Positions 6,407 through 43,414 of a stretch of DNA of 64,000 bases are shown one piece after another (within the stretch, counting starts at the first letter, position 1; each line of letters begins with the position of its first letter). A model generated the notes under the pieces. It made no database searches and was not told the DNA's origin. It saw only the letters and a list, made by a program, of their open reading frames with translations. This DNA is from a virus. The stretch spans positions 34,361 through 98,360 of the IMG/VR virus record IMGVR_UViG_3300023174_000101; one strand, given 5' to 3'. A program made the translations under genes and the position numbers.

Positions 6407-9115
6407 TCATACCTTTAACCCCTTTGCAAGGCCCATTAACTGCTCTGGTGTGATGCACTCCGTCCAACGTAGGCTGGTCGTACGGCTGGTGTCCAGGTCC
6501 AAGTCGAACTTAATATCGGACGTACCGCCACGGCGCTTATCCAGGAATGCGATACGGTTGCCCTTGTCCTTGGCCTCGGCCATCTGGTCGGGCGTCTTCT
6601 CTTGGAGCAATAGTACATCGTCTGCGTCCTGTGCAATCTGGTACGAGCCGCCGATGTTCTCAATCTTGCCGGTCTCGCCCGCCACGTAGTTAGACCGGTT
6701 CTGCTGGGCGATACACACGGAGCATATGCCCATGCCCTCTGCGATCTGGTTCTTCATCACCTTGGATGCGCGGCCAATTACCTGCTCACGTGAAGCGCCT
6801 TTATCCTCAGGTCCCGGTGATACCAACTGGATATAGTCCACAAATACGGCCTGAATCCCGTACTTGAAGTGGTATTCGTCTACGATTGCGAAGATTTCGT
6901 CAATGGAGCCAATCTTCGGCTTCTTGATGTAGAACTGCGACGATGCGATGCGTTCCATCGCGAGCTTTACCTTCAAGTACTGCTCGTCGTTGAGTAGACC
7001 TGCCTGTAGCTTCGTGTTGTCGATGCCCGACAGCATCGAAATCTGGCGGAACGAGGTCTCAATCTCGTTCATTTCGAGGGGAATCCAGAGCGTGGGAATC
7101 TGGTCCTGGGGCTGTGGGGAGATAGAAATCGCCGTCGCCATTTGCAGTGCTAGCAGGGACTTACCTACGCCTGAATACGCGGAGATTACGACTTGGTGCC
7201 CCTTCTGCAGTCCGGACAGGCCCAGGGTTAGTCCAGTCAGACACACATTCATCTGGCCGTCCACGTCCCGGAGGGTGGAGAAGTCGAACCCCACGACCGC
7301 GCTCTTGCGGGCCATACGCTCCTCAAGGTCCACGCGTACGCAGTCCATGAGGGAGATTGGATTGCTCTTGTCGTCGCGGCGTATCTCCATGCTGGAGACC
7401 ATTTCACGCCGATACTTGGACAGGATGTCGTTCGTGGGCTTCTTGAGGTCGCCAAGTGTGGCCTGCAGTACACGGGACTGGTCAATGCCCATGCGCCGCC
7501 TGTAGAGGTCTACGATGCGGTGCAGTGCGTCTTGGAACTGATACTTGGCCTCCGCCACAAGCAGCATGTCGATGTACTTGTGGAGGTCTGGGAACTGAGG
7601 GTATGCAATCTTTAGCTGGTCGCGTACCACCTGTACGGTGACCGAATCAGCTAGCCCGTCTTCGCGTGCCCTGCGGTGCACATGCTCAATCGCATTATAT
7701 ACGTACTGATGCCCACCTACCGTGAACACTTTATTGTCGGTGATGGACTGCCGAATGGTAGACCAGGACTTTTGGTTCAGCAGTGCGTGCTGGAGTACTA
7801 CCTGCTCCGCGTCCCGGTTCATCAGGCCCGTGTCGCCAAGTTTAGTCTCCACCACGTACGACTTGATGCTGAGTGGCTCTACCCCGATTGCGCGGGACAA
7901 GTACTCGGCAGTCAGGTCCAGCTGTACGTCCGGGAGCCGAATTAGGTGCTCCTTGAGGTCCTTGACCAGGGAGAACTTATTCTCCGTAGTAAGATTGCCG
8001 TGCGCGTCCCGGCGCATGTCCACATAGAACTGGACTGGGAGTACAGCCGTGGCAAAGATGGTGTCTAGTGCCTCCTTGCCGAACTCGCGCACGATACCAT
8101 CGGGCTGCTTTCCCTCGGGCATCTTTGTGATGAGCACATTGATGTCATGGAACTCATTGATGTAATCCATGAGTCGCACGGAGGCTGCGCGGCCAGCATT
8201 GTCGCCGTCGAATGCGACACGCACTTCCTTGACACCGTACTCACGCAGGAGCTGAATCTGCTCCTCGTGAATCTGCGTACCCATGACCGCCACGCCGCCA
8301 GAGGCAATCGCCGCCTTCTGGCCTTCGCAGATACGCATAACGTACCCGTTCTTACGGAGGTCCTTGCGGGCAACGTTGAATCCGAACAGGAGCTTGTGGC
8401 TGAACAGTGGGTGGCGGTTGCTCGTGCCCACATACTTGCCGCCGAAATCGGGTGGTGGATTCAGCGGCTTATTGTAGAAGCGTGCCACCCGTCCGTTCTG
8501 GTCACGGATTGGGTAGACTAGGGCGTCGCTCCACGCGAGCCGGTTGGTAAACTCGAGCTTGTCGATATCATCCTGGCTGATGCCGGGGAACTTGGCATGC
8601 AGGTGCTGGATTATCTGGTCCGTGGAGATGCAGTACCCAACATCGTACGTCACAATCTGGTCAATGTCGAATCCAGTATCCTGGATGTACCACTCGAGCA
8701 TCTGCTTGTTCGCGAACAGGGCGTTGGTGCAGTACTTCGCCGCCTCTTCGCAGATGTCTTGATATCTGGCCCGCTCAATCTCCTCCGCTGTTGGCGGGCG
8801 GTGATATGCACTGATATCGATGTGATACGTGGCCGCGAGGCGATTAATAGCCTCGGTTACGGTGATACTATGGAAGTTCTGTGCCCAAGCTACTACATCG
8901 CCACCCGCCTGGCACCCGAAGCACTTGTAGAACTGTAACTGGGTGTGAACACCGAATGACGCGCCCTTAGACTCCGAGTGAAACGGGCAGAACCAGAACT
9001 TGTCGTTTCCCGTTTCCTTAGCCGGTGCACCAAGGTCATCCGATACGACTTGGATAATATTCAGCCTTTTACGTAGCTCTGTCCGTGCTGACTTTACGTC
9101 AGTGATATACATCAT
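6407..9115 (-). CDS. DNA primase-helicase fusion (CHC2 Zn finger + TOPRIM + DnaB-like helicase)
   Basis: CPFH..CFGC zinc finger; TOPRIM ICEG and FDGDNAG; DnaB motifs AYSGVGKS, VDYIQL, AQQNR, IAQDAD. Confidence 0.93.
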   Translation of the reverse strand: MMYITDVKSARTELRKRLNIIQVVSDDLGAPAKETGNDKFWFCPFHSESKGASFGVHTQLQFYKCFGCQAGGDVVAWAQNFHSITVTEAINRLAATYHIDISAYHRPPTAEEIERARYQDICEEAAKYCTNALFANKQMLEWYIQDTGFDIDQIVTYDVGYCISTDQIIQHLHAKFPGISQDDIDKLEFTNRLAWSDALVYPIRDQNGRVARFYNKPLNPPPDFGGKYVGTSNRHPLFSHKLLFGFNVARKDLRKNGYVMRICEGQKAAIASGGVAVMGTQIHEEQIQLLREYGVKEVRVAFDGDNAGRAASVRLMDYINEFHDINVLITKMPEGKQPDGIVREFGKEALDTIFATAVLPVQFYVDMRRDAHGNLTTENKFSLVKDLKEHLIRLPDVQLDLTAEYLSRAIGVEPLSIKSYVVETKLGDTGLMNRDAEQVVLQHALLNQKSWSTIRQSITDNKVFTVGGHQYVYNAIEHVHRRAREDGLADSVTVQVVRDQLKIAYPQFPDLHKYIDMLLVAEAKYQFQDALHRIVDLYRRRMGIDQSRVLQATLGDLKKPTNDILSKYRREMVSSMEIRRDDKSNPISLMDCVRVDLEERMARKSAVVGFDFSTLRDVDGQMNVCLTGLTLGLSGLQKGHQVVISAYSGVGKSLLALQMATAISISPQPQDQIPTLWIPLEMNEIETSFRQISMLSGIDNTKLQAGLLNDEQYLKVKLAMERIASSQFYIKKPKIGSIDEIFAIVDEYHFKYGIQAVFVDYIQLVSPGPEDKGASREQVIGRASKVMKNQIAEGMGICSVCIAQQNRSNYVAGETGKIENIGGSYQIAQDADDVLLLQEKTPDQMAEAKDKGNRIAFLDKRRGGTSDIKFDLDLDTSRTTSLRWTECITPEQLMGLAKGLKV

Positions 9116-10850: not shown

Positions 10851-12320
10851 CTATCCTAATACTAAGTGTCCGTCGTTGTCGTACTGGCTTTTACGTGAAT
10901 CGAAGTGCTTAGATAAAAATTGGGTGTTGGTGTGAAAATCGATCAATAGTCCGTACTCCTTGGTCGCATTTGGGGATTTATCTGCACGCTCTACCCGTCC
11001 TTTGAGCTGCCGGATATCCTGCAAGTCTGATGCCAACATGATTGCATTTAGGGATGGTATATCCAGCCCAGTGCCACCTACATCGCTCACCAGTACTAGT
11101 AGATCCTTCCTCCGCATCGCATCGTAGATTTCTCTTCGTCGGAGGCGAGGAGTCTTACCATTAACCAGCATTGAACCTGGAATGCGCTGCTGAATGGATT
11201 CACCGAATTCAATAGAGTGAGCAGCGTGAATGAACACAGAATTACCTGTTGATGCCATTTTAGATGCGTAAGCAGCAACTTCCTCATGATACTGGTCATT
11301 CTTGAGGATTTCATTCTCTAAGCACTCTCTGTAATTGGCCGTATAATCGGGCTCAGTCTTGCCACCCTTGAAGCGGTTCTTCTTGAAGTGGATGTTATAA
11401 TCCTTCTTAACCGGCGCGCGATTCTGGACCTGGACGTAAATGGGCACTTTAAGGCCAAGCTCTACGAAGTTATTCTTCCGCGTGTCGAATACGACCGTAC
11501 CAAAGTGCTGCTCAAGCTCCAGGTTCTCACGCTTCTCACGGTCCCCATCCCATCCGTACGGGGTGGCAGAGAAGCCTATGAACCTATCCGCGTTAGGGAA
11601 TAGGTCCATAATGTTGAGGATGGAAGCCGTGTCGCTCAGGTGGACTTCATCCGAGATTACGGCACCCACCTTGTTTGTGAATGCAATCAGGTCCTTGCGC
11701 TTGTCTGCAGCCGCAATTGACTTTGCTTTCTTGATTGTGTTGAGTGACTGGACGGTTGATACGGTGATGTTTTGTATGTCGAATTCCCCGTCCCCTATTA
11801 TCCCGATGGGTTGATTATATGCGCGTTGTAAAGACTGCTGCATCTGGTCAAGCAGTACCACGTCCGTAACGAGAACGATGGTGTACCGCTTGAGATTATT
11901 CAGCAACATCGCAATCTGCACGCTCTTACCGGTGCCCGTGGGGGACACAATAATCCCACTGGACGTCTCAGTTGCGGCCTCCACCGCCTTGCTCTGGAAC
12001 TCGTACGGGCGGAAGATGTCCTTATGTATGTAGTGGTCCACACGGGGTGGCTCGCGCCCTGTGTATTTGGTGGTTACGTTATGACCAGCGTCTTTAAGAG
12101 CAGCGACCACACGGCTCAGAAGGCCACGCCTGAACGTGTTGTCCTTTATGTTGAATAGGTAATTATATCCATCCCACGTGCCGCTCTTGAAGCTGTACAC
12201 ATGCCTGTATCCATCCGGCCTATAGCGCAGGATGGAACACAGATACCTAAGTATGTCGTCAGGAAGGACAGAGGGCTCAATACGTGCAACTAGATTGTCG
12301 TACTCTATGCTTAGGTTCAT
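10851..12320 (-). CDS. SF2 DNA helicase (UvsW/XPB-like)
   Basis: SPTGTGKS, DEVH, SAT, GTGLDIP, QLKGRVER; start MNLSIE overlaps the upstream stop (ATGA). Confidence 0.9.
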   Translation of the reverse strand: MNLSIEYDNLVARIEPSVLPDDILRYLCSILRYRPDGYRHVYSFKSGTWDGYNYLFNIKDNTFRRGLLSRVVAALKDAGHNVTTKYTGREPPRVDHYIHKDIFRPYEFQSKAVEAATETSSGIIVSPTGTGKSVQIAMLLNNLKRYTIVLVTDVVLLDQMQQSLQRAYNQPIGIIGDGEFDIQNITVSTVQSLNTIKKAKSIAAADKRKDLIAFTNKVGAVISDEVHLSDTASILNIMDLFPNADRFIGFSATPYGWDGDREKRENLELEQHFGTVVFDTRKNNFVELGLKVPIYVQVQNRAPVKKDYNIHFKKNRFKGGKTEPDYTANYRECLENEILKNDQYHEEVAAYASKMASTGNSVFIHAAHSIEFGESIQQRIPGSMLVNGKTPRLRRREIYDAMRRKDLLVLVSDVGGTGLDIPSLNAIMLASDLQDIRQLKGRVERADKSPNATKEYGLLIDFHTNTQFLSKHFDSRKSQYDNDGHLVLG

Positions 12321-12766
12321 GTGCCGTAGCGGTACATCTTGTCCAAGCTGTTCGCGCCAGTGATTAGGCGGCTTGCCGACTCGCGCTGAGACTCTAGGGT
12401 CTGAATTGCACGATACAGGCAGTCCATATGCGAATTCAGCACCGCAAGTGCGTCCTCCGCTGCCTCCTTGGTATCCGGGTTCTTCTTCGCCTTTGTCCAC
12501 CCAGGCTTGGCCCCGGCGCACTGAACATACAGCTCCGTGGCAAAGGAGATGCGGTTGGCGATTGCGGGCAGAATAGGCAGGATTTCGCCCTGCAGATTGA
12601 GCGTGTGGTTCGGCCCTGGGATTGGGAGACGCAGATTGAGCAGGCGTGTGGCTACCCACTTTGCCAGGTCTGCGGGGTCAGTCGCGAGGATGTTGGTGAT
12701 GTTTACGTCGGGTATGCTTGCACCGTAGCTTGGCTGGTGAATACCACTTACTGTATCAATGTCCAT
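12317..12766 (-). CDS. hypothetical protein (possible recombination mediator)
   Basis: Lies between RuvC and the helicase; helical C-terminus; function inferred from position only. Confidence 0.5.
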   Translation of the reverse strand: MDIDTVSGIHQPSYGASIPDVNITNILATDPADLAKWVATRLLNLRLPIPGPNHTLNLQGEILPILPAIANRISFATELYVQCAGAKPGWTKAKKNPDTKEAAEDALAVLNSHMDCLYRAIQTLESQRESASRLITGANSLDKMYRYGT

Positions 12767-14061: not shown

Positions 14062-15186
14062 TTACTGCTGAGCCTTGCCCTTCAATACTTCGTCACGAAT
14101 CTTCTGTAGGATTGCCTTGTCTGCAGCACGCAGGGCTGCAATGAAGGCATCCTCACCGTTCGCCTTGATGGTGTCGTACGTATACCAGGATGAAGACTTG
14201 CCAATGACGCCAAGCGCCAGGGCGGTCTGCACTACGTCCTTATACACGTCTACGCCAGCATAGTAGACCTGGCCAGAGTCGTCCGTCACGTTCTCGAAGT
14301 AGATATCGTACTGGATTGGCGTTACAGGGATGGCTGCAGTCTTATTCTTGTGCAGCTTCGCCTCTACCGTTACGCCGATACGACGCTCTTCGAACTGGCC
14401 GGTGATGCTGGGCACCTTCTTGATAATGTCGCCCCGCTTCTTAACCTCTATGGAGTAAGTCTCATAGAACTTAAGTGCATTACCGCCAGTGTGTTCCTCG
14501 GGGCTGCCGAACATAACCATGGGCTTTGCACGCTTCTGGTTAATCATCCACACAACCGACCGCTTGAACCCGTTGAGTAGTGCGGTAAGCTGTTGCAGAC
14601 CCTCGGACATCATCACCGATGAAGTCGCCTTCTGTCCCTGGCCAATCGTAGCTGTCATACGAGAGGAGGGGATAAGCGCGGGGATTGAGTCCACGATGAT
14701 GAATTCGATACCGTTCTGTACGAGAATCTTCATGATATCGAAGTAGTCCTCGCCAGACAGAATCTTCTCCGGTGAACTCTGGAACAGGAGGAGCTTGTCC
14801 GTGTCGATGCCTACGGACTTGGCCATTGCGGGTGAATACGTACCCTCTGCGTCGAGGAACGCCACCCGACCCTCTCCATCCGTGTTGCCCACGCATGGGG
14901 TGAACTTTGAGCGCTGGATGTTCGCGGCCACCGTCAGTGCGGTGAGTGTCTTACCAGTGCCCTCCCATCCCCATGCGTTTACTACGCGACCACCAAGGAG
15001 ACCACCCACACCCAAGTACCTATCCATGGACAGAATCCCGGATGGATACAGGTATGTAATGTCCTGTGTCTCTGAAAGGGACGAAGCCACGGAGGCTACA
15101 TCTGCTTTCAGATGCTTGTTAATCGCCGTAGCAAGGGCAACTAAGTCCTTGCCTTTTGGCGTATCCTTAAAACGATCGTCAGCCAT
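14062..15186 (-). CDS. recA: RecA/UvsX-like recombinase
   Basis: GWEGTGKT, FLDAE, IIVDSIPAL, INQKR, TGGNALKFY, KNK. Confidence 0.95.
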   Translation of the reverse strand: MADDRFKDTPKGKDLVALATAINKHLKADVASVASSLSETQDITYLYPSGILSMDRYLGVGGLLGGRVVNAWGWEGTGKTLTALTVAANIQRSKFTPCVGNTDGEGRVAFLDAEGTYSPAMAKSVGIDTDKLLLFQSSPEKILSGEDYFDIMKILVQNGIEFIIVDSIPALIPSSRMTATIGQGQKATSSVMMSEGLQQLTALLNGFKRSVVWMINQKRAKPMVMFGSPEEHTGGNALKFYETYSIEVKKRGDIIKKVPSITGQFEERRIGVTVEAKLHKNKTAAIPVTPIQYDIYFENVTDDSGQVYYAGVDVYKDVVQTALALGVIGKSSSWYTYDTIKANGEDAFIAALRAADKAILQKIRDEVLKGKAQQ

Positions 15187-15189: not shown

Positions 15190-16293
15190 TTAGCCCCGTG
15201 CGCCGCGCATTTCACCGAGCTTAGACTCAAGAGCCATGCGGAGGGTCTCAAGCTGATGCTCGGACAGCTTGTAGTACTCCGCGTGACCTACCTCCTTCTT
15301 GAGGATAGGGAGCAGAGTCTGAATCATTCCCATGCCCTGGAACTCGGGCTGAGAGTTCAGCCATGAGCTGAACGCATCGACCACGTTCTTGGACGCCTGG
15401 TCGCCATTTACGGCCTTAACCTCAACGTTCGGGGTGGCCGCGTTGACGATCGGCAGCTTAGGAGCAGCCACCGGGGTGGGGGCAGCTGCAGCTACCGGTG
15501 CAGTCATGGGGGCTCCAGCCACCGCGTTAGCGATGACGTTGGCGATGCCAGCTGCGCCGTTCATAAAGACTGCAGGATTGTTGGATTGTCGCAGCTGGAA
15601 CTGGGCCTGTCCAGCAGGGAGCCCGTACTGTGCCTGTGTGTTGCCCTCTGGCAGTGCGGTGGAGCCATCGCCGCCACGGATTGCAGCCACGAGCTTGGGC
15701 GTGTCCGTGGGCGCACGGTCCCGCATTGCGACCGTCAGCACGGACTTTGCCTGGTCCTCAAGCTCTGGCGTCACGTCGAACGCAGAGGCATCGAGGCGCA
15801 GGGAGTTATAGCGCGTCATCTTGCGCTCGCCAGTCTTCCACACACGCCAGTCACAGCGGCGGAGGTCCTGCCCGCGAGTGTCCTGTGTGTCGAACCACTT
15901 GTCCATTTCCTGGAAGATCTGGTTACCGCCCTTGAGCACCTCCACCTGCGTGGTGCTGTGGTTGTACACAGGCAGCATGTGGATGGGGGTCTTGGGGAAG
16001 TCAACCCGCTTGCCCTGCCGGTTCGTCTGCTCCTCGCCTGAGAGCATTGACCAGAGGGGGTCGGGAGTGCTGCACAGATAGCAACCTGCGCCGGAACGGT
16101 TAGTCGCAGTGCAGGTCTCGTAAGCGAACTTACGCACCGTCTGCGGCTGGCCGTTAGGCCCAGCAGTCTTTACCTCCTGAATCTTGTGGACCCAGACGGT
16201 CTGCGGCTTTGCGGACAGGGGGCGAAGGGTAACAGGCTCGCCCTTGACTTCAACATAAACGGACTGCTTCGTAGAATCAGCTAGAAAACCCAT
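15190..16293 (-). CDS. probable ssDNA-binding protein (gp32-like)
   Basis: H...C...CYLC zinc motif, OB-like N-terminus, low-complexity linker, adjacent to recA. Confidence 0.55.
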   Translation of the reverse strand: MGFLADSTKQSVYVEVKGEPVTLRPLSAKPQTVWVHKIQEVKTAGPNGQPQTVRKFAYETCTATNRSGAGCYLCSTPDPLWSMLSGEEQTNRQGKRVDFPKTPIHMLPVYNHSTTQVEVLKGGNQIFQEMDKWFDTQDTRGQDLRRCDWRVWKTGERKMTRYNSLRLDASAFDVTPELEDQAKSVLTVAMRDRAPTDTPKLVAAIRGGDGSTALPEGNTQAQYGLPAGQAQFQLRQSNNPAVFMNGAAGIANVIANAVAGAPMTAPVAAAAPTPVAAPKLPIVNAATPNVEVKAVNGDQASKNVVDAFSSWLNSQPEFQGMGMIQTLLPILKKEVGHAEYYKLSEHQLETLRMALESKLGEMRGARG

Positions 16294-16309: not shown

Positions 16310-16459
16310 TTACTTAGAGAAATGAATTGTGAGAATGTCGCCGTCTTTAACTTCGATTGATTTGTCCAGCTCTAGGTTAAACTTTGTACCGTCCATACAG
16401 ACGATCAAAGCCTTTCCTTTAGCTGCTTTAATGACTTGTACTTTATCGCCGTTTTTCAT
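16310..16459 (-). CDS. 49-aa small protein (not in the ORF track)
   Basis: MKNGDKVQVIK...IHFSK; its ATG overlaps the purZ TAA. Confidence 0.5.
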   Translation of the reverse strand: MKNGDKVQVIKAAKGKALIVCMDGTKFNLELDKSIEVKDGDILTIHFSK

Positions 16460-17637
16460 TAATTGACTGTATCACTGTGATTATCTGGATTATAGTATCT
16501 GCCTTCTGAATCAAATGGTAGCGCCATTTGGCCCCCAGCCGCACGAATGGTTTCACCGTTACGAGTAACGATTTCACCGTTCTTTGCGCCCGTTCCGACT
16601 AGCGTTACCGGTACACCTCCCACTTCTTCTACCCTACGAATGAAGTTCTTGCTCTTCTCTGTCAGCGTGGAAAAATCACCCTTCTTGCAATTGTCGTGCC
16701 AGTCGATATACTGGATGAAATTCACTGCAATTTGTGTAGGACCACACACGTTCACGAAGTTACGGAATAGAGCATCCGACCACGTAAACACACGACGCAC
16801 TCGCTTAGTCACAGTAGTCCTCTCGTACAACTCCATTGGACCACCACACTCTGACATTACGTCTGCCCAGGTGACCTCCTTGGCGTCAAAGGGCACTGGA
16901 CCTGACCACCCTACAGTACCGTCTTCGGCTACGAAGTTACCCACCCGGATGGGCCAGGTGCGTACGATACCGATTACCTCGCCCACCGCCTTGGGAGGCA
17001 CACCCATACCGCCTAAGAAGGAACTGGTGTTGGTACCGCCAGACGTGCAGTATGGGAAGTCGATGCCGTGGGAGATATCCAGGCCGAACCCCTGGTGGCC
17101 CTCATGCAGGAAGGTCTCGCCTGCAATAAGTCTGCTGTGAATTAGGTGGGTGGTGTTGCAGGTGAATGGCTTGAGCCACTCAATGTCCTTGGAGAGGCGT
17201 ACACCCTCCTCGCGACGAATACGACGGGCCTTAGCAGCGCCCACACCCTGCATTGTACCACCGATGCGGCCTAGGTGCTGCTTCTCCCACAGGACGTCCT
17301 CTTCCTCTACAACCACTGCACGGTCGGATACGAACAGACGCTCTGGGGTGAGCTTAAACTGCTCAATCTCCTTCTTGAGGATGTCGAGCGAGAGCGTGGA
17401 CTCTGGCCCGATGATGAGCTTGGTTGATGGATTTAGGACACCGGTCGGAATCTGCTTGACGAGAATCTCCGTGCCGTCGTCTAGTACAGTAACGTGGCCC
17501 GCGTTCGCACTGAACGAACAGGTGGCCCACTCAGGCTTGTCCTCTAGTACGATGTACGCAAGCATCTTGCCCTTGCCGCAGGAGCCCACGCCAGCATCTA
17601 AACCAATATTGAACTTGCCCTTCTGTAAGTATCGCAC
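16459..17637 (-). CDS. purZ: PurZ-type N6-succino-2-amino-dAMP synthetase (PurA paralogue)
   Basis: GSCGKG (Ser where PurA has Asp in GDEGKG), NAGH, EGHQG, PYCTS, RTWPIRV, TTVTKRVRR, and VNF instead of the PurA TKLD motif. Confidence 0.82.
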   Translation of the reverse strand: MRYLQKGKFNIGLDAGVGSCGKGKMLAYIVLEDKPEWATCSFSANAGHVTVLDDGTEILVKQIPTGVLNPSTKLIIGPESTLSLDILKKEIEQFKLTPERLFVSDRAVVVEEEDVLWEKQHLGRIGGTMQGVGAAKARRIRREEGVRLSKDIEWLKPFTCNTTHLIHSRLIAGETFLHEGHQGFGLDISHGIDFPYCTSGGTNTSSFLGGMGVPPKAVGEVIGIVRTWPIRVGNFVAEDGTVGWSGPVPFDAKEVTWADVMSECGGPMELYERTTVTKRVRRVFTWSDALFRNFVNVCGPTQIAVNFIQYIDWHDNCKKGDFSTLTEKSKNFIRRVEEVGGVPVTLVGTGAKNGEIVTRNGETIRAAGGQMALPFDSEGRYYNPDNHSDTVN

Positions 17638-17658: not shown

Positions 17659-17943
17659 CTACTTTATAAAGGACGACATGGCGTTCTGCAGTATCTCTAC
17701 CATGTCGTCATTCTTTGGTGGATTTACTATTCTGCCTACTACTTTGCTGCCAGACAGTATTAGGAAAGTCGGCACAGGCAATACTCTGTGCTTAGCCACG
17801 ACAGCCAGATCGTCCAGGTCTTGAGTATAAAAGTCAATCATTCTGCCGTCTGGTACTAGCTTTAGCAGATCTTCGAACTCTTTGTTGCGTGGACAATCTG
17901 GTGTCGTTATGCAGACAACTTCAATCGTGCTTTTTCTTGCCAT
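17659..17943 (-). CDS. thioredoxin-fold protein
   Basis: TPDCPRN in the CxxC position; VPTFLIL cis-Pro motif; directly downstream of RNR. Confidence 0.6.
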   Translation of the reverse strand: MARKSTIEVVCITTPDCPRNKEFEDLLKLVPDGRMIDFYTQDLDDLAVVAKHRVLPVPTFLILSGSKVVGRIVNPPKNDDMVEILQNAMSSFIK

Positions 17944-20900
17944 TAAGATATGTGGCAGACGCTAAACCCACATGACTTGCAGGACTCACAGCCGCCACCC
18001 ATTTCTAGAGTGTTTTGATTGCACTCTGGGCATAGCTGTCCTCCTGCATCAGAATAATTAGCCACGATATTCTCTTCCACAGGCGCAACCTCTGCAGCGG
18101 CGGGCACTTCATTGGTCTGCGGCTGTGTGTCGGCTTTCTTCTGGGTGGATAGAGCCTGGTGGGACCTGCACCCGTCACGATACACAGTGATTCCCTTACA
18201 ACCGTTCTGCCAGGCAAGTATGTATGCGTGGCGCACGTCGTCCTCGGTCGCGGAGTTCGGGAGGTTGATGGTCTTCGAGATTGAGTTATCGATGTGCTTC
18301 TGCCATACAGCCTGCATCAGGACGTGGTCCTTGTGCTGGACATCATTAGCCTGCGCAAATAAGAGCTGAATATCCTCAGGGACATCCAGGCAACCCATAA
18401 GGCTATTGTGAGCAAAATAATACTCATATACGCTGTTTCTCTTAGACTCAGAGAGACTGTTGAGCCAGCTTTCGAAGAGCGGATGAGACTCATACATAAT
18501 CATGCCAGCCTGCTCACGGCGTAGCAACAAGCCGAATACGGGCTCAATGCTTGTAGAGCAACCTGCAATCATCGCAGTCGTACCAGTAGGAGCGACTGTT
18601 GTACGGCAAGCGTTACGCATTGCGGACCATCCCTCCTTCTGTACCTCTGAGCCCTCAAAGGACCCGAATGAGCCACGCTCCTTGCCGAGCTTGAACGAGG
18701 CCAAGTCTGCATGCTTACGGTGGAATGATGCGATCTTCTCAGCAGCAACGCGTGCCTTCTCTGATGCATACGGAATGCCAAGCATGATTAGCATGTCAGC
18801 AAAGCCCATGACGCCAAGGCCAATCTTACGATTGGTGTCGCGGTGCATCTTCTCAATCTCTGCAGTTGCGTAATGATTGAGTTCGATCACGTTATCTAGG
18901 AAGCGCACACCCCAGTAAATGTCCTCCTCGTACTGCCTCCAGTCAAAGCGATCTTCCCAATTGGGGGACACAACATCGGTCTTCACGTACATGGCCAGGT
19001 TGTGATGACCAAGAGTACATGCCTCATTTGGGAGTAGCCACTGCTCGCCGCAGTTGGAGATAGTGATACCATTGGCGCACATACGGTGTGTGGGCTCAAT
19101 GGTGAGGCAGAATGTCTCCTCCTCACCGTCGAAGTCGATGGACACAATTTCGTCTAGGCGGCTAGTCTCACGGAGTTTGTGGTTTATTAGAATATTATTC
19201 AGCTTCTCAGTCTTGTAATCCTGGGTGAATCCGATTTCGCTAGCGAAATATCCGACTGCAGACCCAGTTATGCTAAGCTCATAACACCTGCCGTCAGAGC
19301 CATACTTCTGCACTGAACCATCAGGCAGTGTGTGCTTGAATAACTCCTCACGCGGCTCACGTGACCGGTCATACTTGGTGCAGTAGATACCGAACCTAGA
19401 CAGTAGCACCTGTGCGCCACTGATAAGAGCTTCACTCTTGGATGTTAGACGTACACCGTAGTTACCCTTATGAGAGTCGTAGACTACATGGCCGTCCGCA
19501 GAGAATAGACCACGTAGGAATCCTGCCGCCACATCCATGCTGGCATTGTTCACGCATGCGGGCACTTCCTTCTCACCCGCCTTGTGTGGGATGATACCTA
19601 GATCCTTCACAGCCCACGTCCAGATGCGTGACGATAGCAGCTGCGTGGTGTTGAACTGCTCACGCACGTGGGCTGTAGCTGGGACTCCAACGTGCTTTGC
19701 AATTAAGCCGTTAATATGCTCTACGTACGCAAAGTCAGGACCGCCAACTACAATGCCTGCCATCCTAGACTTGGACTCCATGTGGCTAAGGTAGCCGTCG
19801 CCAATGAGCCAACCGACTAACTCGCCAAAGCTGAAATTATCCTGATTGACAGGCTCTCTGTGCATCTTTGGCTGTAGCGTAACTACATCGCCAATGACTA
19901 AGTCACGGGTCTCCTTAACTCCAGCCTCAGTTGGCCACCTGTGATTGTCTGTGGCGCGGACTGAATACCCTCTACGAGTGGTAACCTTATATACCTTCTT
20001 TACCCCGGAGTCAATGTACTGGGTGATATCCTCAAGCTCGCCAGATGGGGATAGCGCCTTCTTTGCAGCATTCTTGCGAACGATATCCACAATTGGCTGT
20101 AGACCATTCTCCGTGGCGATTAAAGTCTCACCCGTCACGCATGGGTTAGTTGCACTTAGGTGGCCCACGTGTGGTGTCGGGTTTGCGCGGTTTGCGGCGT
20201 CGATAAACAGTAGTCCTGGGTCGCCCGTGCTCCAGGCACTCTTCACCAGATGGTTAAATAACTGACGGGCCTTAATGGTCTTTACGGTCTTGCCATCTGC
20301 GCGTGACTTTAGATTCCAATCTAAGTCATTCAGTACTGCATTCATGAACTTGTCAGTTGCGGCTACGGACACGTTGAACGATGCGCATGAACCGTCCTGG
20401 TGCTTGAACGTGATGAACTCCTCGATGTCTGGATGATCGTCCGGTAGAACGCCCATGTTTGCACCATTGCGGATGCCACCTTGGGTGATGAACTCGGACA
20501 TCATGTAGTTCATCAACTTAATGATTGGGATTGGACCCGCTGCGTTATGTCCGGTGGACTTGACGAGAGCGCCGCGTTCGCGGATGTTGCCGAAGTTAAA
20601 TCCAGTGCCGCCGCCTGACTTCTGAACTAATGCCTGATTCTTAAGGGCATCCATGATGCCCTCCATAGAGTCCTGAATCGGCAACACGTAGCAGGCTGCA
20701 AGCTGCCCACGGTCACGACCCGAATTTGCAAGCGTAGGAGTGTTGGGCATCCAACGCAGGGAGCGCATCATTTCATACGCTCGGTCATGCATCTCCTGTG
20801 ACTTCTCGTGCGTGCCGAATTTGAACTCAGCACGCGAGTTAAATATGGCCACACGCTCGAACAGCTCTTCTGGTGTTGACTCTATAAACGAGCCATCTGG

Positions 20901-20972
20901 ATTCTTCCAGTAGTACCGCTTCTGTAGGACCTTCTTTGCGTTTGTGTTGATCTCAGGAAACTTTGAAGACAT
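17943..20972 (-). CDS. nrdJ: class II (B12-dependent) ribonucleotide reductase with intein
   Basis: PNTPTL, LAACYV, GGGTG, RNGANMG, TNP/CGEQ, VAPTGT, SISKTINLP, YRDG, C-terminal Zn ribbon. Confidence 0.92.
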   Translation of the reverse strand: MSSKFPEINTNAKKVLQKRYYWKNPDGSFIESTPEELFERVAIFNSRAEFKFGTHEKSQEMHDRAYEMMRSLRWMPNTPTLANSGRDRGQLAACYVLPIQDSMEGIMDALKNQALVQKSGGGTGFNFGNIRERGALVKSTGHNAAGPIPIIKLMNYMMSEFITQGGIRNGANMGVLPDDHPDIEEFITFKHQDGSCASFNVSVAATDKFMNAVLNDLDWNLKSRADGKTVKTIKARQLFNHLVKSAWSTGDPGLLFIDAANRANPTPHVGHLSATNPCVTGETLIATENGLQPIVDIVRKNAAKKALSPSGELEDITQYIDSGVKKVYKVTTRRGYSVRATDNHRWPTEAGVKETRDLVIGDVVTLQPKMHREPVNQDNFSFGELVGWLIGDGYLSHMESKSRMAGIVVGGPDFAYVEHINGLIAKHVGVPATAHVREQFNTTQLLSSRIWTWAVKDLGIIPHKAGEKEVPACVNNASMDVAAGFLRGLFSADGHVVYDSHKGNYGVRLTSKSEALISGAQVLLSRFGIYCTKYDRSREPREELFKHTLPDGSVQKYGSDGRCYELSITGSAVGYFASEIGFTQDYKTEKLNNILINHKLRETSRLDEIVSIDFDGEEETFCLTIEPTHRMCANGITISNCGEQWLLPNEACTLGHHNLAMYVKTDVVSPNWEDRFDWRQYEEDIYWGVRFLDNVIELNHYATAEIEKMHRDTNRKIGLGVMGFADMLIMLGIPYASEKARVAAEKIASFHRKHADLASFKLGKERGSFGSFEGSEVQKEGWSAMRNACRTTVAPTGTTAMIAGCSTSIEPVFGLLLRREQAGMIMYESHPLFESWLNSLSESKRNSVYEYYFAHNSLMGCLDVPEDIQLLFAQANDVQHKDHVLMQAVWQKHIDNSISKTINLPNSATEDDVRHAYILAWQNGCKGITVYRDGCRSHQALSTQKKADTQPQTNEVPAAAEVAPVEENIVANYSDAGGQLCPECNQNTLEMGGGCESCKSCGFSVCHIS
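19053..20141 (-). mobile_element. 363-aa intein with LAGLIDADG endonuclease
   Basis: CVTGETL...ATDNHRW...LVGWLIGDG...FLRGLFSADG...ANGITISN|C; interrupts the NPCGE active site. Confidence 0.92.
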
Positions 20973-34115: not shown

Positions 34116-34199
34116 TGGCCAAGGAGGGACTTGAACCCTCATGCCCGTGAAGGCGGCGGATTTTGAGTCCGCTGCGTATACCGATTTCGCCACTCGGCC
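34116..34199 (-). tRNA. tRNA-Leu(CAA)
   Basis: Cloverleaf with long variable arm; anticodon arm GCGGA-CTCAAAA-TCCGC. Confidence 0.92.
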
Positions 34200-34247
34200 C
34201 TAAGTATATCCTATGATAGCAACTGATCGTCACTGGATTAACTGCTT

Positions 34248-35168
34248 CTAGCGTGGATCTCTCTTATGGCGATACATGTGCACATTTACGGTAGGCGCTC
34301 GGCTATTGTCAGACTCAGGTCTCATCTTCTGCAAATAATCATACAAAGACAGACCGGCGAAGCCGCCGTTCTTATTCCATACTTGATATGCACTGTAAAT
34401 CCACTTTGGAACGTATGCGTCATACTTGTACGCTACAAGTTCGGTGTCAATTAGACCGTCGTGACAAAGGTTGTATAGTTCTTTGTTAGAGCGATAGTCA
34501 ACGCGCTCATTGTCGCCGCTGTGAATAACATTGTACATACGGTAGTTAATACACCTGGCAGTCTTCATGTGGCTGGGCAGCTGCTTGGTATTTACTACCG
34601 TACGACAATGTGGACATTCAGACTGGAACGGCACACGGAACGCAGTCAGCTCGATAGCTGGCCAGCTACTATCCGAGCCATCCTGAGACCAATCGCGTAT
34701 TGGCTCTGATGCCATAAAATATGTAGACTTACTGGTGAGCTTGTCATGCTTCGCCTGGAGTAGGAACTTCGCATTATTCTGTCTAAGTTCGTCTATGTAG
34801 CCAATAAACTCTGGCACGGACTCGCGTACGACCTTCTTCGGGGCATATGCAGACCTCCACGAAGAGTTGCCATTCTTGGCCCAGTTTGACATGAAAATTG
34901 TGCCAGTTCCGCACTCCATGGCCATCTTTACAATGTCAGCGTTCTCCTTCATGTACGTAGCCGAATACAACACGTGTATTGGCATGGTGCCACCACCGAA
35001 CATGCTGTAATTGTCGGCCACGCTGGCCGCTAACTTGTCGCGCACATCTGCTAGCCTTTTGTTGGCGATGTCGATGTGTAACTCAATCTCGTCGATCGTA
35101 GGATTAAAAACCACTACGTTACGCCAATTGTCGGTGCCAGCCTGAAGCTCAATTTTTCTTTCGCTCAT
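34248..35168 (-). CDS. GGF-x6-EYL family, member 2 (with C2HC finger)
   Basis: CPHC...H...C then VPKWIYSAYQVWNKNGGFAGLSLYDYLQKM. Confidence 0.8.
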   Translation of the reverse strand: MSERKIELQAGTDNWRNVVVFNPTIDEIELHIDIANKRLADVRDKLAASVADNYSMFGGGTMPIHVLYSATYMKENADIVKMAMECGTGTIFMSNWAKNGNSSWRSAYAPKKVVRESVPEFIGYIDELRQNNAKFLLQAKHDKLTSKSTYFMASEPIRDWSQDGSDSSWPAIELTAFRVPFQSECPHCRTVVNTKQLPSHMKTARCINYRMYNVIHSGDNERVDYRSNKELYNLCHDGLIDTELVAYKYDAYVPKWIYSAYQVWNKNGGFAGLSLYDYLQKMRPESDNSRAPTVNVHMYRHKRDPR

Positions 35169-35507
35169 TTTTATCCAGCCTGCATCCGCAAATATGGTAG
35201 TGTTCGACCTTTACTTCACAATCCTTAGTGCCAGTACATGATACCCACTTGGAGTCGTTACATTTCTTGCATTTTGACATGTTCAAAGTCCACCGATGAG
35301 AATAGTGCGGCAGATAGAATAGAGTGTTGCTCATTCTCCCGCCGTACATTTAGTTTATACGAGTATAACCCCGGCTCTACATCGGTGACTATATATCTTG
35401 CACCAACAGTGGGCTTAAGCTGCTTGGCGAACACGCCCTTACGGCTCACGCAGCGGACTAAATCCCCAACTTTAAACTCTGTAGCGGCCATTGTACTGCA
35501 GTACAAC

Positions 35508-35523
35508 TGCACACGGCGTGCCA
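35508..35523 (-). promoter_or_regulatory. sigma54 -24/-12 promoter
   Basis: TGGCACG-CCGT-GTGCA. Confidence 0.7.
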
Positions 35524-35561
35524 CGGGCCCCTCGTCGGAGCCCGTGGTCGCCAGATGTCAG

Positions 35562-35861
35562 CTACTTGCGAGCGCCGATGGTGCTATCTTGCTCGCGCCC
35601 GCCGAAGTCTCCGGTCTTGGATCGAAGCCCACGTGCGTACTTCTGCACACGTGGGTGTTCAGTGTCCAGACCCTGAGACTCTGCATATCTACGCACCGCG
35701 TCTTCGAACTTGCGGGAGTCTTCATCAATTGGCCTACCCCGCTCATCCGTCATGTGCCCACCCGTTTCGTCCGCGTACTTCTTCACGCGTGGGTCGTCGA
35801 GGGTGAAACCAAGAGACTCTGCCCACTTAATAACGGCCTCAGAATACTGTTTTTCCGGCAT
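35562..35861 (-). CDS. YAxSxGL-repeat protein (2 repeats)
   Basis: AVIKWAESLGFTLDDPRVKKYA and AVRRYAESQGLDTEHPRVQKYA. Confidence 0.7.
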   Translation of the reverse strand: MPEKQYSEAVIKWAESLGFTLDDPRVKKYADETGGHMTDERGRPIDEDSRKFEDAVRRYAESQGLDTEHPRVQKYARGLRSKTGDFGGREQDSTIGARK

Positions 35862-36413
35862 GTTACCCTCTTTGGTTAAGGCGCGCGGCACCACGCCACC
35901 CGCCACAAAAAAGGTAATCACGCCTTCTCGCCGCGACAACTGGTATATCTTATCCGTATAATAGAGTCCAACAGACACAGCAGCGCATTTCAATCTTGTC
36001 GTCTTCCGCGTCTACCATGGTTGTATTATGGTGGTCACATATCGACGCGAGGGTAGACTGTAGGTCTTGAATTTTCTTGTCTAGTACGCCGCGTTGACGT
36101 TCCAAGCGGTCAATCTGCTTCACAAGAGAGTTGATCTTGTTCTGTGCCTTGCTCTTGTTAGCCTTCTCGGCTTTGCGTTTGTGCTGGGGTGTCTTTGCTT
36201 TCTCTGCCTCAAGCTCGGCATCCTTGTCAAGATACCCCTGCGCCTCTTCTGGCCTGGCCACTTTGCTTTCTGCAATGGCCTTACCAGACAAGATGTCTGC
36301 CCTGGAGAAACGACCGACAGTCATCTGTGCAGCAGTTCTCTGACGCATATGTACAACTCTAGCGTAAAGAACGCTCCTAAAGCTATGTACCATGCAGCAG
36401 GTAACTTGTCCAC

Positions 36414-36704
36414 TTAGATCAGTCCTTCGCCCCTTAGGTATGCGAATAATAGAGCTGCAAGTGCTGTATAGGTACCCTCTGTACCAGCATAGTGCTTATC
36501 GAACATCGTACTGAATACATCGTGAAGGACTACACGGGTAGTTTTTATATCCTTCATCTCGTCTATGCGGTACATAGCTGCCTCAATCTCAGACACATAC
36601 TCATCGGGAGGCGCACCCATCTTAATAAGGCCCAGTGGGTCTGCCTCGTTGAAGATGTCGTACAAGTCTGAGAGAAGCTTAGGATTTTGGCGTACGTTTA
36701 TCAT
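36414..36704 (-). CDS. DUF1871-like small protein
   Basis: DPLGL...APPDEY.SEI motif. Confidence 0.6.
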   Translation of the reverse strand: MINVRQNPKLLSDLYDIFNEADPLGLIKMGAPPDEYVSEIEAAMYRIDEMKDIKTTRVVLHDVFSTMFDKHYAGTEGTYTALAALLFAYLRGEGLI

Positions 36705-36708
36705 AGAC

Positions 36709-37232
36709 TCACTTCACATCAAGACCAGACAGTCTGCATCTAGCTTTATATTCTCTAATTCTGGTGTTGTGTGCGGTTTTGCATACTGTACACTTACACT
36801 TGTGGTATCTATACCCAACTGATGTGCCATGTGGTATTTGGTCGTCAGTAAGGGTTGGCCGTAGCTGTCCGCCATTGCTACACTCTTTGGAGCAGAACAG
36901 TCTTCCGGACTTGTTCCTGCTAGAACGCGTTTTAGCCTTGCTTGGCACTAGGCTAAACTGTGTGTTGCAGCGCGCACACGTAAGTTCTAGCCGCTCAGCG
37001 GTACTGTGATGTGAAGCGTGCGCACCTGCAGCCAACATCGAGAGGTTTTCAATCCGATTGCCAGTCTTGTCTTCGTTGACATGATGGACAACGTGCCATC
37101 TGGCACAATCTGCCCAGTGGCTTGCCACCATACTATATGGTGTTCATATGCATAGCGGCCACGGTATAACTTACCAGGGTAGCCAGTTGGAGCCACAACT
37201 AATATGTATGGTCCGTTTCTCATGTTTATCAA
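36709..37232 (-). pseudogene. frameshifted HNH endonuclease
   Basis: YEHHIVWWQATGQIVPDG (36987..37232 frame) continues as HVVHHVNEDKTGNRIENL in another frame; 1 nt is missing near 37095. Confidence 0.75.
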
Positions 37233-37237
37233 CTAAG

Positions 37238-37313
37238 CTCCTTGAGCTGGATTCGAACCAGCGACATCCGAATTAACAGTTCGGCGCTCTACCTAGATCT
37301 GAGCTATCAAGGA
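37238..37313 (-). tRNA. tRNA-Asn(GTT)
   Basis: CCGAA-CTGTTAA-TTCGG; TCCTTGA/TCAAGGA acceptor stem. Confidence 0.92.
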
Positions 37314-37327
37314 ATATAATTGTTGCA

Positions 37328-37398
37328 TGGAGCTAGACAGAATCGAACTGTCAATCTCGCCTTGCAAAGGCGATGTTATCCCGTTTAACTATAGCCCC
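37328..37398 (-). tRNA. tRNA-Ala(TGC)
   Basis: TCGCC-TTTGCAA-GGCGA; G3:U70 identity pair. Confidence 0.88.
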
Positions 37399-37436
37399 TT
37401 GCATTAATAATGCTTACTCATTGCTGCTGGATATAC

Positions 37437-37823
37437 TTAGGAGAAGTAGCCCATACAAAATGCATGGCCCTCTGCATCAATCCAGGAGCGATCATCCTTC
37501 CAAGGCTGCCTAGGTCCACCCGTAGTCTCGGTATGATGATTCTTGCCCTGCTTCTTCTCGTCTACCATCTCCCAGAACTTTTTGGCAGAGATTGGACGTT
37601 TGTACTCGCTCATAATCCTGACCCTTTTGCCATTAATCTTCATGGACATAGCATCGCGCCAATCCTTGGCAGAGTTAATCGGTGCGCCCGTTGGCGACTC
37701 GTACCCTTTGAGCGCCTGAAATGTGAACGACCATCCCATGCTGCTCTTGCCGATGTGATACTGGTTCTCTGGATGCTTGCACGTAGGGCATACGTTTACC
37801 ATCAGATAGTAGTTAGTTCCCAT
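37437..37823 (-). CDS. conserved phage protein (MGTNYY...HIGKSSMGW...FS)
   Basis: Motif recognised as common in phage proteins. Confidence 0.7.
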   Translation of the reverse strand: MGTNYYLMVNVCPTCKHPENQYHIGKSSMGWSFTFQALKGYESPTGAPINSAKDWRDAMSMKINGKRVRIMSEYKRPISAKKFWEMVDEKKQGKNHHTETTGGPRQPWKDDRSWIDAEGHAFCMGYFS

Positions 37824-38127
37824 TCTTGCACCTGTCGCTTACATAAAGAACACGGTCCGCTGGTGAAGTTTCAATCTTCAAGATGCAGTGGTCGAGGATG
37901 CCCTCTCCACCAAACGAGCGCGAGGTCTTGATAAGAAGCGGAATCTTCGTTGGCCCCATGGACCTATTGACCGGGCCGCACATAGGAAGGTCTGGCCAGA
38001 TGTCGCCTGTCTTACTGTCACCGTAATAAATGCGGATTCGCTTGCCGGAAGCGCGAGCGTCTTCAAGGATATTAATCACTGCCTTCGGGGTAGAGTCGTG
38101 GTAAGTCGTGCCGTTCACGATGGGCAT
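37813..38127 (-). CDS. conserved phage protein (RIRIYYGD..TG...GRS-like)
   Basis: Start moved to MPIVNG. Confidence 0.65.
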   Translation of the reverse strand: MPIVNGTTYHDSTPKAVINILEDARASGKRIRIYYGDSKTGDIWPDLPMCGPVNRSMGPTKIPLLIKTSRSFGGEGILDHCILKIETSPADRVLYVSDRCKNGN

Positions 38128-38214
38128 ACAATTGTCCTTGATAAAATGCCACCAGAGGTAAGGTAGTGGCACACTAAATAGCCCCTTACGACTGCATCGG
38201 GAATCTACCCGATG

Positions 38215-38709
38215 CTAGACAGACGCCTCGGTCTCAGCCTTGGTCGGAGACTCGACGCCAGCGCGCGCGCGCGCCTCAGCCAGGCGGGCCTGCAGCTTGG
38301 CACGAATGCTCTCCGCATTGGCAATTACCTGCTCGGGGCTGGGCGTAACCTCAGGCACATCAATTACCTGTGCAGTAGCCTTCTTGGCGGCAGGCTTACG
38401 ACCCGAACCCTTCTTCATTTCTGGGGAGACCGCGCACTGGTGCCAATCGGACTGCTCACGGATGTGGTTCGGACCGCCCTTGATACAGGTCAGCTCCGCA
38501 CGGAGCTTGCCCTTCTCGGAGCGCTCGGAGAGGATGACACCCTTGGAGCCCAACGGCGTGGTAAACTTCATGCCAGCGAGGCCAAGCTTCTTGGCTGCCT
38601 CCATGGTGTAGTGGCCATCCGCATCTGGAGTGAACCCATGCTTGGTGGCTGCGGTCAGGATTGCGGAATCTGCAGAATCAGTAATGGTGGTGTTGGTGTC
38701 GGTGCTCAT
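38215..38709 (-). CDS. Ala/Lys-rich protein, paralogue of 59695..60288
   Basis: KFTTP.G..GV.L.E.S..GK..AELTC...RE.SDWHQC. Confidence 0.75.
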   Translation of the reverse strand: MSTDTNTTITDSADSAILTAATKHGFTPDADGHYTMEAAKKLGLAGMKFTTPLGSKGVILSERSEKGKLRAELTCIKGGPNHIREQSDWHQCAVSPEMKKGSGRKPAAKKATAQVIDVPEVTPSPEQVIANAESIRAKLQARLAEARARAGVESPTKAETEASV

Positions 38710-38762
38710 TGTTTGCCTCTGAGGGTTAAATGCTCAGCGCCACGCTGAGCACTACTACTATA

Positions 38763-38835
38763 TGCGAACGGCGTGCCAGAGGTCTTACCTCTCACACGCC
38801 GCCGCACGACAAAGAATACTGCACTGGCCGTGCCA
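38763..38835 (-). promoter_or_regulatory. tandem sigma54 promoters (38763-38778, 38820-38835)
   Basis: TGGCACG-CCGT-TCGCA and TGGCACG-GCCA-GTGCA. Confidence 0.75.
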
Positions 38836-39028
38836 GTACTATCTATATACAGGGTCTCGGTGAGCGCCGCAGTGGAGGCACTGGCCAGAGCCGCCGAAAA
38901 GATGCTCGGTCCCATTGCAGGCTTGCACTGTTGCCTTAATTAGTGGATTGATGATGAGGTACATGTTCTGTAGGACGTCACGCTGTTCGGATTGCTTGTT
39001 CACGTTTATTTACCCTGCATTTTAAGAG

Positions 39029-39100
39029 TGGACCGGGGTGGAATTGAACCACCGTCACGCACTTATAAGGTGCGGGCCTTAACCATTAGGCGACCAGTCC
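39029..39100 (-). tRNA. tRNA-Ile(TAT)
   Basis: CGCAC-CTTATAA-GTGCG; GGACTGG/CCGGTCC acceptor stem. Confidence 0.85.
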
Positions 39101-39107
39101 TTAATTT

Positions 39108-41203: not shown

Positions 41204-41222
41204 CCTACAATAATAATTATAA

Positions 41223-43378: not shown

Positions 43379-43414
43379 GGTATTAATTGTGGTTGATTTG
43401 TGGAGAACCACAGG

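Follow-up and report, generated by a model that had tools for sequence, protein, structure and literature searches.

Phages that replace adenine with 2-aminoadenine (Z) have been described with two sets of enzymes, PurZ with DatZ, MazZ and DpoZ-2, and PurZ0 with DutZ, DmtZ and DpoZ-1. The PurZ proteins of phiVC8, S-2L and SH-Ab 15497 (PDB 6fm1 and 7odx) are ATP-dependent 2-aminodeoxyadenylosuccinate synthetases. The PurZ0 set belongs to the actinophages Ghobes and Wayne; there, the Dut-like DutZ hydrolyses dATP and dGTP, the NDT-like DmtZ splits dAMP and is also able to pass deoxyribose 5-phosphate on to the Z base, and the two genes are adjacent or fused (PMC12884076). Here, a purZ gene was analyzed in a stretch of 64,000 nucleotides (the window), the right-hand 64 kb of one linear 98,360-bp virus record of IMG/VR (IMGVR_UViG_3300023174_000101, positions 34,361 to 98,360). 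A first-pass annotation of the window had recognized a PurZ signature at 16459–17637 and proposed a candidate Z genome in a large phage. The size is borne out by the 98-kb record, its estimated completeness of ~61% (CheckV), which by our arithmetic corresponds to a full genome of ~160 kb, and its seven tRNAs. Every sequence-level test that was run (P-loop, clade, residues, the PurB, DmtZ-like and DutZ-like genes, and palindromes) favored a PurZ-type enzyme in a Z-DNA pathway. We consider it probable that the gene encodes a functional PurZ within a nearly self-sufficient pathway and that the virion DNA is Z-substituted.

The open reading frame is real, but its coding strand is the minus strand, as the plus-strand translation is riddled with stops. 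Its GTG start codon agrees with the start of the closest homologue, P0001, in the alignment. The motifs reported by the first-pass annotation are present: GSCGKG begins at residue 18 and places Ser19 where GDEGKG of PurA has the catalytic Asp (Asp13 in PurA, S14 in phiVC8 PurZ), RTWPIRV occupies residues 226–232, and VNFIQY residues 305–310. A TTVTKRVRR motif is located at residue 274. The motif match is not due to chance, since the product matches Pfam PF00709 (2e-38) and PHROG 1211 ("2-aminooxy adenylosuccinate synthetase", 1e-55). Its top PDB sequence match is the short archaeal PurA from Pyrococcus (3e-39), followed by the PurZ of S-2L (1e-32) and phiVC8 (1e-30), and a far weaker match is 7vf6 (5.5e-16), labelled "the crystal structure of PurZ0" by the fold search. 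The same ranking was obtained by fold. The AlphaFold model, which used the alignment with the P0001 start, has a pLDDT of 83, a pTM of 0.84 and a disordered tail (residues 361–392), and its Foldseek TM-scores, normalised to the target, are 0.90 for Pyrococcus PurA, 0.82–0.85 for PurZ structures (0.85 for phiVC8) and 0.77 for PurZ0. Both PF00709 and Foldseek thus identify the homology and fold of an adenylosuccinate synthetase.

A HMMER scan of 1.84 billion cluster representatives returned 381 proteins below 1e-30, and P-loops were read in the 150 best. Among the 129 of these that were readable, the position of Ser19 is Ser in 128, Gly in one and Asp in none; Asp (GDEGKG) is found in all 18 PurA sequences taken from phage and prokaryotic loci. 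IMG/VR contains more than 542 relatives of the purZ product, many on contigs of 100–436 kb, and no near-identical DNA was found in the phage collection. Several homologues (P0002, 734 residues; P0035, P0036, P0066 and P0079, 751–798 residues; P0138, 893 residues) are about twice the normal length, and their alignments to the query break into two or three segments, which suggests inteins or other insertions in purZ.

The phylogeny against PurA, PurZ and PurZ0 that the first-pass annotation had recommended was built as a 270-row FastTree and as a 65-row IQ-TREE (LG+C20; quick search, with support from the SH-like approximate likelihood ratio test, SH-aLRT, only). The reference PurA set came from a scan of prokaryotic genomes and comprised the long bacterial-type and two short archaeal forms. 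The two trees concur in their order: long PurA as the outgroup, then short archaeal PurA, then a Ser-type clade (SH-aLRT 99). The early branches within the latter are cellular GSEGKG forms and the clade of actinophage PurZ0 (SH-aLRT 100). A 42-row clade (SH-aLRT 99) unites the purZ product with the PurZ of phiVC8, ZP6, SH-Ab 15497 and Bm1, apart from PurA and PurZ0; the characterised ATP-using enzymes in it are those of phiVC8 and SH-Ab 15497. Inside this clade, it is sister to P0001 (support 100; 59% identity), which is encoded on a 73.6 kb contig, and this pairing makes it a deep sub-lineage of PurZ proper.

Six positions discriminate PurZ in the metaGPA study (S14, P233, W252, T262, F295 and Y298 in phiVC8 numbering; bioRxiv 10.1101/2025.10.22.683976), and the purZ product carries all six residues, as do the characterised PurZ proteins. 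In that study, F295 and Y298 stack on adenine, and guanine is read by an Asp in PurA and PurZ0. Here, F295 and Y298 are found in VNFIQY, and the guanine-specifying Asp in the TKLD-equivalent segment is replaced with Gln. The phosphate-donor site is predicted to be ATP-type, with ATP most likely the donor. The equivalent of phiVC8 F12 is Val, at a position that varies across the clade (A, V, Y, F). Membership in PurA was rejected because of Ser19 and the branch outside PurA, and membership in PurZ0 because of the branch outside that clade, the Asp-to-Gln change and the 7vf6 match.

The gene inventory of the first-pass annotation had to be extended, as it omitted PurB in the window, and also the Adk-like, DmtZ-like, DutZ-like and DnaE genes, which sit 0.4–8.6 kb before the window start (Table 1). 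The PurB signature SSAMPHKRNP, starting at residue 266, is intact. In the operon, adk and the dmtZ-like gene overlap by 11 nt, and the dmtZ-like and dutZ-like genes by 8 nt, so the latter two are adjacent. Among 50,697 phage records, only 9 match the DmtZ-like protein, and each of these is an actinophage with PurZ0. The protein is 39.5% identical to Ghobes DmtZ (E = 1.6e-11) and keeps, in the alignment, Y6, D12, P57, N77 and E103, i.e., the catalytic triad Tyr6/Asn77/Glu103 plus Asp12 and Pro57 of the Ghobes enzyme (PMC12884076). The best phage matches of the DutZ-like protein are the DutZ of PurZ0 phages (87–105 bits versus at most 72 for other phage dUTPases), and a Dut tree groups it with PurZ-associated Duts, among them DutZ of Ghobes, Wayne and Goodman, in a clade of 15 (SH-aLRT 94), with 10 non-Z Duts (six phage, four cellular) outside. 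Its residues 1–110 form an N-terminal extension with no Pfam match, which is absent from Ghobes DutZ and differs from the NDT domain fused at the same place in Wayne.

Homology suggests the following route. The DutZ-like enzyme would hydrolyse dATP and dGTP to dAMP and dGMP, and the DmtZ-like enzyme would destroy dAMP, yielding adenine and deoxyribose 5-phosphate. PurZ would condense dGMP with aspartate to N6-succino-2-amino-2'-deoxyadenylate (dSMP), with ATP as the likely donor; the phage PurB would remove fumarate from dSMP to give dZMP, and dZMP would be raised to dZTP by host Ndk plus a kinase of either the phage (the Adk-like enzyme) or the host. Finally, the C-family replicase DnaE, with the primase-helicase, RecA, UvsW, RNase H and ligase, would set Z opposite T. 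Adenine would be excluded chiefly via the emptied dATP pool, not via a Z-selective polymerase. S-2L works in the same way: its PrimPol is unselective, and substitution is reported to be complete because dATP is cleared by DatZ (PMC8065100). The resulting Z:T pairs would protect A- or T-containing restriction sites. With PurB and a nucleoside monophosphate kinase of its own, the phage would leave almost nothing to the host.

The first-pass annotation had recognized no DatZ, MazZ or DpoZ in the window, and this holds across all 98,360 bp. In the ~61% complete record, PF01966, PF03819 and PF00476 (HD, MazG and family-A polymerase) have no match, DatZ and MazZ of phiVC8 and ZP6 and three DpoZ proteins have no tblastn match at E ≤ 0.01, and the putative DUF5664 proteins of Ghobes and Wayne have no match. 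Thus, the HD dATPase and MazG-like dGTPase whose search had been proposed are absent from the record, as is the full classical cluster of PurZ, DatZ, MazZ or DUF550, and DpoZ; the polymerase found is DnaE. DutZ/DmtZ-type pool clearance probably stands in for DatZ plus MazZ, and DnaE for DpoZ.

The purZ product has much in common with the PurZ of phiVC8, S-2L and SH-Ab 15497, namely Ser in place of Asp, the TTVT, WPIRV and NF..Y motifs, the W252 equivalent, an insertion after the PIRVG segment, the supported clade and the fold, at 30–35% identity. However, it belongs to a deep separate sub-lineage with P0001, has Val in place of F12, and keeps a C-terminal segment that aligns with archaeal PurA to residue 360. 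Indeed, the short archaeal PurA (Pyrococcus horikoshii, 2d7u/5k7x) is similar in length and C-terminal region, but its P-loop (GDEGKG) contains the catalytic Asp, and it also has the GTP-reading Asp, reads GTVTGR where the purZ product has TTVTKR, lacks the PurZ insertion and branches outside the Ser clade. Gene content differs from that of the three PurZ phages: the record has no DatZ, MazZ, DUF550, DpoZ or PrimPol and contains DutZ/DmtZ-like genes, PurB and DnaE. It resembles the PurZ0 system in its predicted dUTPase-family dATP/dGTP diphosphatase beside a predicted NDT-family dAMP hydrolase/transferase (encoded by adjacent genes here, fused in Wayne), and Ghobes also encodes PurB. Yet the synthetase branches apart from PurZ0 and has no guanine-reading Asp, DnaE takes the place of PolA as the replicase, the tRNA-bearing genome is at least double the size of those of PurZ0 actinophages, and the Dut-like protein has ~110 additional N-terminal residues. 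The phage appears to mix the two published kits, a PurZ-clade ATP-type synthetase being encoded with DutZ/DmtZ-like dATP clearance. What is new is the combination of a PurZ-clade synthetase, DutZ/DmtZ-type clearance, PurB, a nucleoside monophosphate kinase, a C-family replicase and a large genome with seven tRNAs and a myovirus-like baseplate.

If Z:T pairs protect sites containing A or T, only G/C-only sites stay under selection by restriction enzymes. In the 98 kb, 47 G/C-only 6-bp palindromes were observed versus 140 expected (observed/expected ratio, O/E, 0.34). CCGCGG and CGGCCG are absent (17.8 and 15.9 expected), as is CCCGGG (6.5 expected), and GCCGGC occurs once (11.3 expected). The O/E value is 0.91 for the 56 A/T-containing 6-bp palindromes (Mann–Whitney p = 4e-6 versus the G/C-only class) and 0.99 for non-palindromic G/C 6-mers. 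For whole genomes of known Z-phages, the G/C-only and A/T-containing values are 0.35 and 0.88 (phiVC8), 0.28 and 0.72 (Wayne), and 0.69 and 0.92 (Ghobes); in vB_BpsS-140, a cultured relative described below, the contrast is seen at 4-mers (0.16 versus 0.94). Seven phages without any PF00709 gene served as controls; they avoid both classes, avoid neither, or show a weaker contrast. The ratio of G/C-only O/E to A/T-containing O/E is 0.37 here and 0.60–1.8 in the seven controls. The pattern resembles that of known Z-phages, which is supportive but weak evidence given the small control set.

The best cultured match of PurZ is encoded by Bacillus phage vB_BpsS-140 (MH884512), with 38.5% identity over 96% of the query. 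The two phages share the gene order purZ, unknown gene, recA, two small genes, UvsW helicase, two genes, primase-helicase, adk and dut, and vB_BpsS-140 additionally carries an NDT-like gene and a DnaE left unannotated in its record, although a DnaE has been reported for it (PMC6375668). Its GenBank record has no coding sequence annotated over ~3.6 kb that clearly encode DnaE (L002:26976–29293, ~49.0–51.4 kb), at 34% identity to the DnaE of the phage under study. Since two dnaE pieces are listed in the paper (PMC6375668), this gene may be split or frameshifted. G156, a complete 68 kb IMG/VR genome with direct terminal repeats, encodes PurZ, DnaE, Dut and an NDT-like protein; no PolA above the Pfam cut-off and no PurB were found in it. 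Both relatives share with the phage under study purZ, the unknown gene, recA, the UvsW helicase, the primase-helicase, adk, dut, DnaE and the NDT-like gene, but have siphovirus-size genomes of 55–68 kb and PurZ proteins of a neighboring sub-clade. All five IMG/VR relatives searched as whole records contain a DNA_pol3_alpha domain. In the searchable literature, neither vB_BpsS-140 nor G156 is described as a Z-phage, and no paper links PurZ with DnaE/polymerase III or with jumbo phages; nor does vB_BpsS-140 appear in the supplement of PMC12884076.

Ser-type PurZ homologues are also found on jumbo-size contigs of 178–436 kb (L025, L027, L028, L032, L034, L035, L038, L041, L048, L049, L051, L053, L062, L069 and L072), where they form their own clade beside the protein under study. 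In the pooled flanks of these loci, O/E is 0.66 for G/C-only 6-mer palindromes and 0.95 for A/T-containing ones.

Four other explanations were weighed against a Z-substituted genome. The strongest of them, itself unlikely, is that substitution is partial, or that Z is made and an unselective DnaE leaves a mixed A/Z genome. It would agree with the lack of a DpoZ homologue in the record, with full-text literature searches that returned no paper linking DnaE with Z-DNA and no dZTP tests of C-family polymerases, and with the cutting of vB_BpsS-140 DNA by EcoRI (PMC6483233). However, S-2L is reported to be fully substituted despite its unselective PrimPol (PMC8065100), one operon of the phage holds two predicted dATP/dAMP-removing enzymes, and A/T-containing palindromes are essentially unavoided, which fits effective protection. 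A GTP-dependent enzyme of the PurZ0 type, with the same dGMP chemistry and another phosphate donor, is decidedly improbable. The placement outside the PurZ0 clade and inside the one with ATP-using PurZ, the Gln in place of the guanine-reading Asp, the adenine-stacking F295 and Y298, and a match to 7vf6 much weaker than those to phiVC8 or S-2L PurZ all argue against it. It would nevertheless suit the DutZ/DmtZ set, which has been described to date in PurZ0 phages alone (dutZ occurs in 98 of 98 PurZ0 genomes, and PurZ phages use DatZ with MazZ or DUF550; PMC12884076), and the best PDB match by both sequence and fold is a GTP-using archaeal PurA.

We give very little credence to a conventional auxiliary PurA and PurB that together raise AMP production from IMP during infection while the DNA stays unmodified. 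Both homologues are encoded, PurA and PurB catalyze consecutive steps of AMP synthesis, and nucleotide-metabolism genes are frequent in large phages. Nevertheless, the Asp13 equivalent is Ser here and Asp in every true PurA retrieved from prokaryotic genomes, none of the 129 readable nearest homologues has Asp, and DmtZ-like and DutZ-like genes do not contribute to AMP supply. Least credible of all is that the Ser-type enzyme acts on another substrate, as cellular Ser-type homologues may. GSEGKG-type homologues do occur in complete chromosomes and in contigs as long as 2.2 Mb (Paenibacillus, Sorangium, Bryobacterales and proteobacterial metagenome-assembled genomes, MAGs) and in a 172-kb Tissierella contig. 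These cellular forms are basal in the Ser clade and lie outside the 42-row PurZ clade; the Sorangium copy, which is inside it, adjoins a PurZ-type Dut and may belong to a prophage. The gene context, moreover, fits a Z pathway point by point.

A functional PurZ in a phage with Z-substituted DNA remains the favored reading, and several observations weigh against it. DpoZ, DatZ or MazZ could sit in the missing part of the ~61% complete record. The region of the DmtZ lid residue Trp124 aligns to a gap, a nearby Trp being out of register, and the support of the Dut clade is below the threshold of 95, with the dutZ-like product on a long branch. Among the seven palindrome controls, the T5-like IME260 leans the same way (0.49 versus 0.81), and Ser-type homologues are present in cellular genomes. 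EcoRI was reported to cut vB_BpsS-140 DNA (PMC6483233), and dZ-substituted PCR DNA is listed as resistant or partly resistant to this enzyme (PMC12944874). Speaking for Z, by contrast, DraI cut every phage DNA in the former study except that of vB_BpsS-140 (PMC6483233), 31 kb of which contain 14 TTTAAA sites. The dZ restriction paper gives EcoRI only as "resistant or partially resistant", and DraI was not found in it; the vB_BpsS-140 digests are therefore a lead and not a test.

Short GSEGKG-type homologues, which branch at the base of the Ser clade, were found in Paenibacillus (L105/L145), Tissierella (L107), Bryobacterales (L111–L114), proteobacterial chromosomes (L119–L121) and Nanoarchaeota MAGs (L098/L103). 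In Paenibacillus, a second, true PurA lies ~15 kb from the GSEGKG copy; in the Tissierella assembly and the two Nanoarchaeota MAGs, no Asp-type PurA was found. In Sorangium sp. So ce131 (L116/L176, 9.767–9.769 Mb), the P-loop of a PurZ homologue reads GSSGKA, and the next gene encodes a dUTPase of the PurZ-associated Dut clade; this part of the 14-Mb myxobacterial chromosome may be what is left of a Z-type prophage.

Around purZ (Table 1), the first-pass annotation had named nrdJ, SSB and recA; Pfam confirmed nrdJ and recA, but the "SSB" has no Pfam, PHROG or PDB match. Neither Pfam nor PHROG matched the neighborhood proteins of 94, 367, 412 and 269 residues, and vB_BpsS-140 has an unannotated protein at the position of the 367-residue one. 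Of the 80 IMG/VR loci fetched, 13 (seven on contigs of 178–436 kb) encode a ribonucleotide reductase homologue no more than 10 kb from purZ. The reductase gene of the phage holds a LAGLIDADG intein (LAGLIDADG_3, Intein_splicing), and DnaE is also interrupted by an intein, recognized by its splicing domain. The primase/helicase is 27% identical to the vB_BpsS-140 primase over its full length. RNase H and the ligase would serve lagging-strand processing for the phage's own replisome. Beyond dnaE, a sigma factor, ThyX and SbcCD are encoded, and the record contains myovirus-like baseplate genes. The MoxR-like ATPase gene lies near that of a DUF2201 protein, a pairing that occurs in cellular genomes. 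The only phage-collection match to the record's first open reading frame (576 residues) is in Virus Rctr197k, which has no PF00709 gene and is uninformative on Z.

Table 1. Features of the purZ locus and of the rest of the record. Coordinates are window positions; those with the prefix L004 follow the own numbering of a fetched locus that covers the sequence before the window start.
Feature	Coordinates	Strand	Position	Description and matches
purZ	16459–17637	minus		392 residues, GTG start; predicted 2-aminodeoxyadenylosuccinate (dSMP) synthetase
purB	39108–40427	minus		439 residues; adenylosuccinate lyase, predicted dSMP to dZMP + fumarate; Lyase_1 1.4e-45, ADSL_C 8e-15
adk (adenylate-kinase-like)	L004:15405–15968	same strand as purZ	overlapping three-gene operon	
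dmtZ-like	L004:14933–15415	minus	in adk operon	NDT family
dutZ-like	L004:14215–14940	minus	~1.4–2.1 kb before window start	dUTPase family
dnaE	L004:7732–12321		after the dutZ-like gene	1,529 residues; PHP, DNA_pol3_alpha, finger, HhH and OB domains + intein
nrdJ-like ribonucleotide reductase large subunit	17943–20972	minus	just upstream of purZ	Ribonuc_red_lgC 2e-115, Ribonuc_red_lgN
94-residue protein	17659–17943	minus	between the reductase gene and purZ	no Pfam or PHROG match
367-residue protein	15190–16293	minus	between purZ and recA	no Pfam, PHROG or PDB match
RecA-family recombinase	14062–15186	minus	syntenic with vB_BpsS-140 recA	PF00154 3e-44
UvsW-like superfamily-2 helicase	10851–12659	minus		ResIII, DEAD, Helicase_C; matches vB_BpsS-140 helicase
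Fused DnaG primase/DnaB helicase	6407–9115	minus		902 residues; Zn_ribbon_DnaG, Toprim, DnaB_C
RNase H	40411–40905	minus		PF00075 8e-19
ATP-dependent DNA ligase	42071–43429	minus		DNA_ligase_A_M, DNA_ligase_OB_2
Seven tRNA genes	34116–47071	minus	scattered among small genes	Leu-CAA, Asn, Ala, Ile-TAT, Arg-TCT, Lys, Met
Weak Pyr_excise match	44459–44944			pyrimidine-dimer DNA glycosylase, 6e-4, below Pfam cut-off
DUF2201 protein	52111–53253			metallopeptidase and VWA-like domains
MoxR-like AAA ATPase	53833–55011			

A wider reading can be put forward tentatively, with the balance somewhat against it: a broad, undescribed phage lineage may keep Z-substituted DNA and replicate it with C-family (DnaE) polymerases. 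This lineage would span the siphoviruses of 55–68 kb, the present phage of ~160 kb and the contigs of 180–436 kb. DnaE would then join DpoZ and PrimPol as a third, independent type of polymerase solution, and may itself have evolved to favor dZTP. If this reading is true, Z-DNA is not confined to small phages. Z substitution itself is directly testable, because the cultured relative vB_BpsS-140 (DSM 29700) carries the same module. If Z is confirmed in the phage under study, the range of Z-DNA would come to include large phages of myovirus-like type with tRNAs, Z-DNA would prove to be a workable template for a C-family replicase, which is relevant for making Z-DNA in cells, and the accessory enzymes of the pathway would be exchangeable modules.

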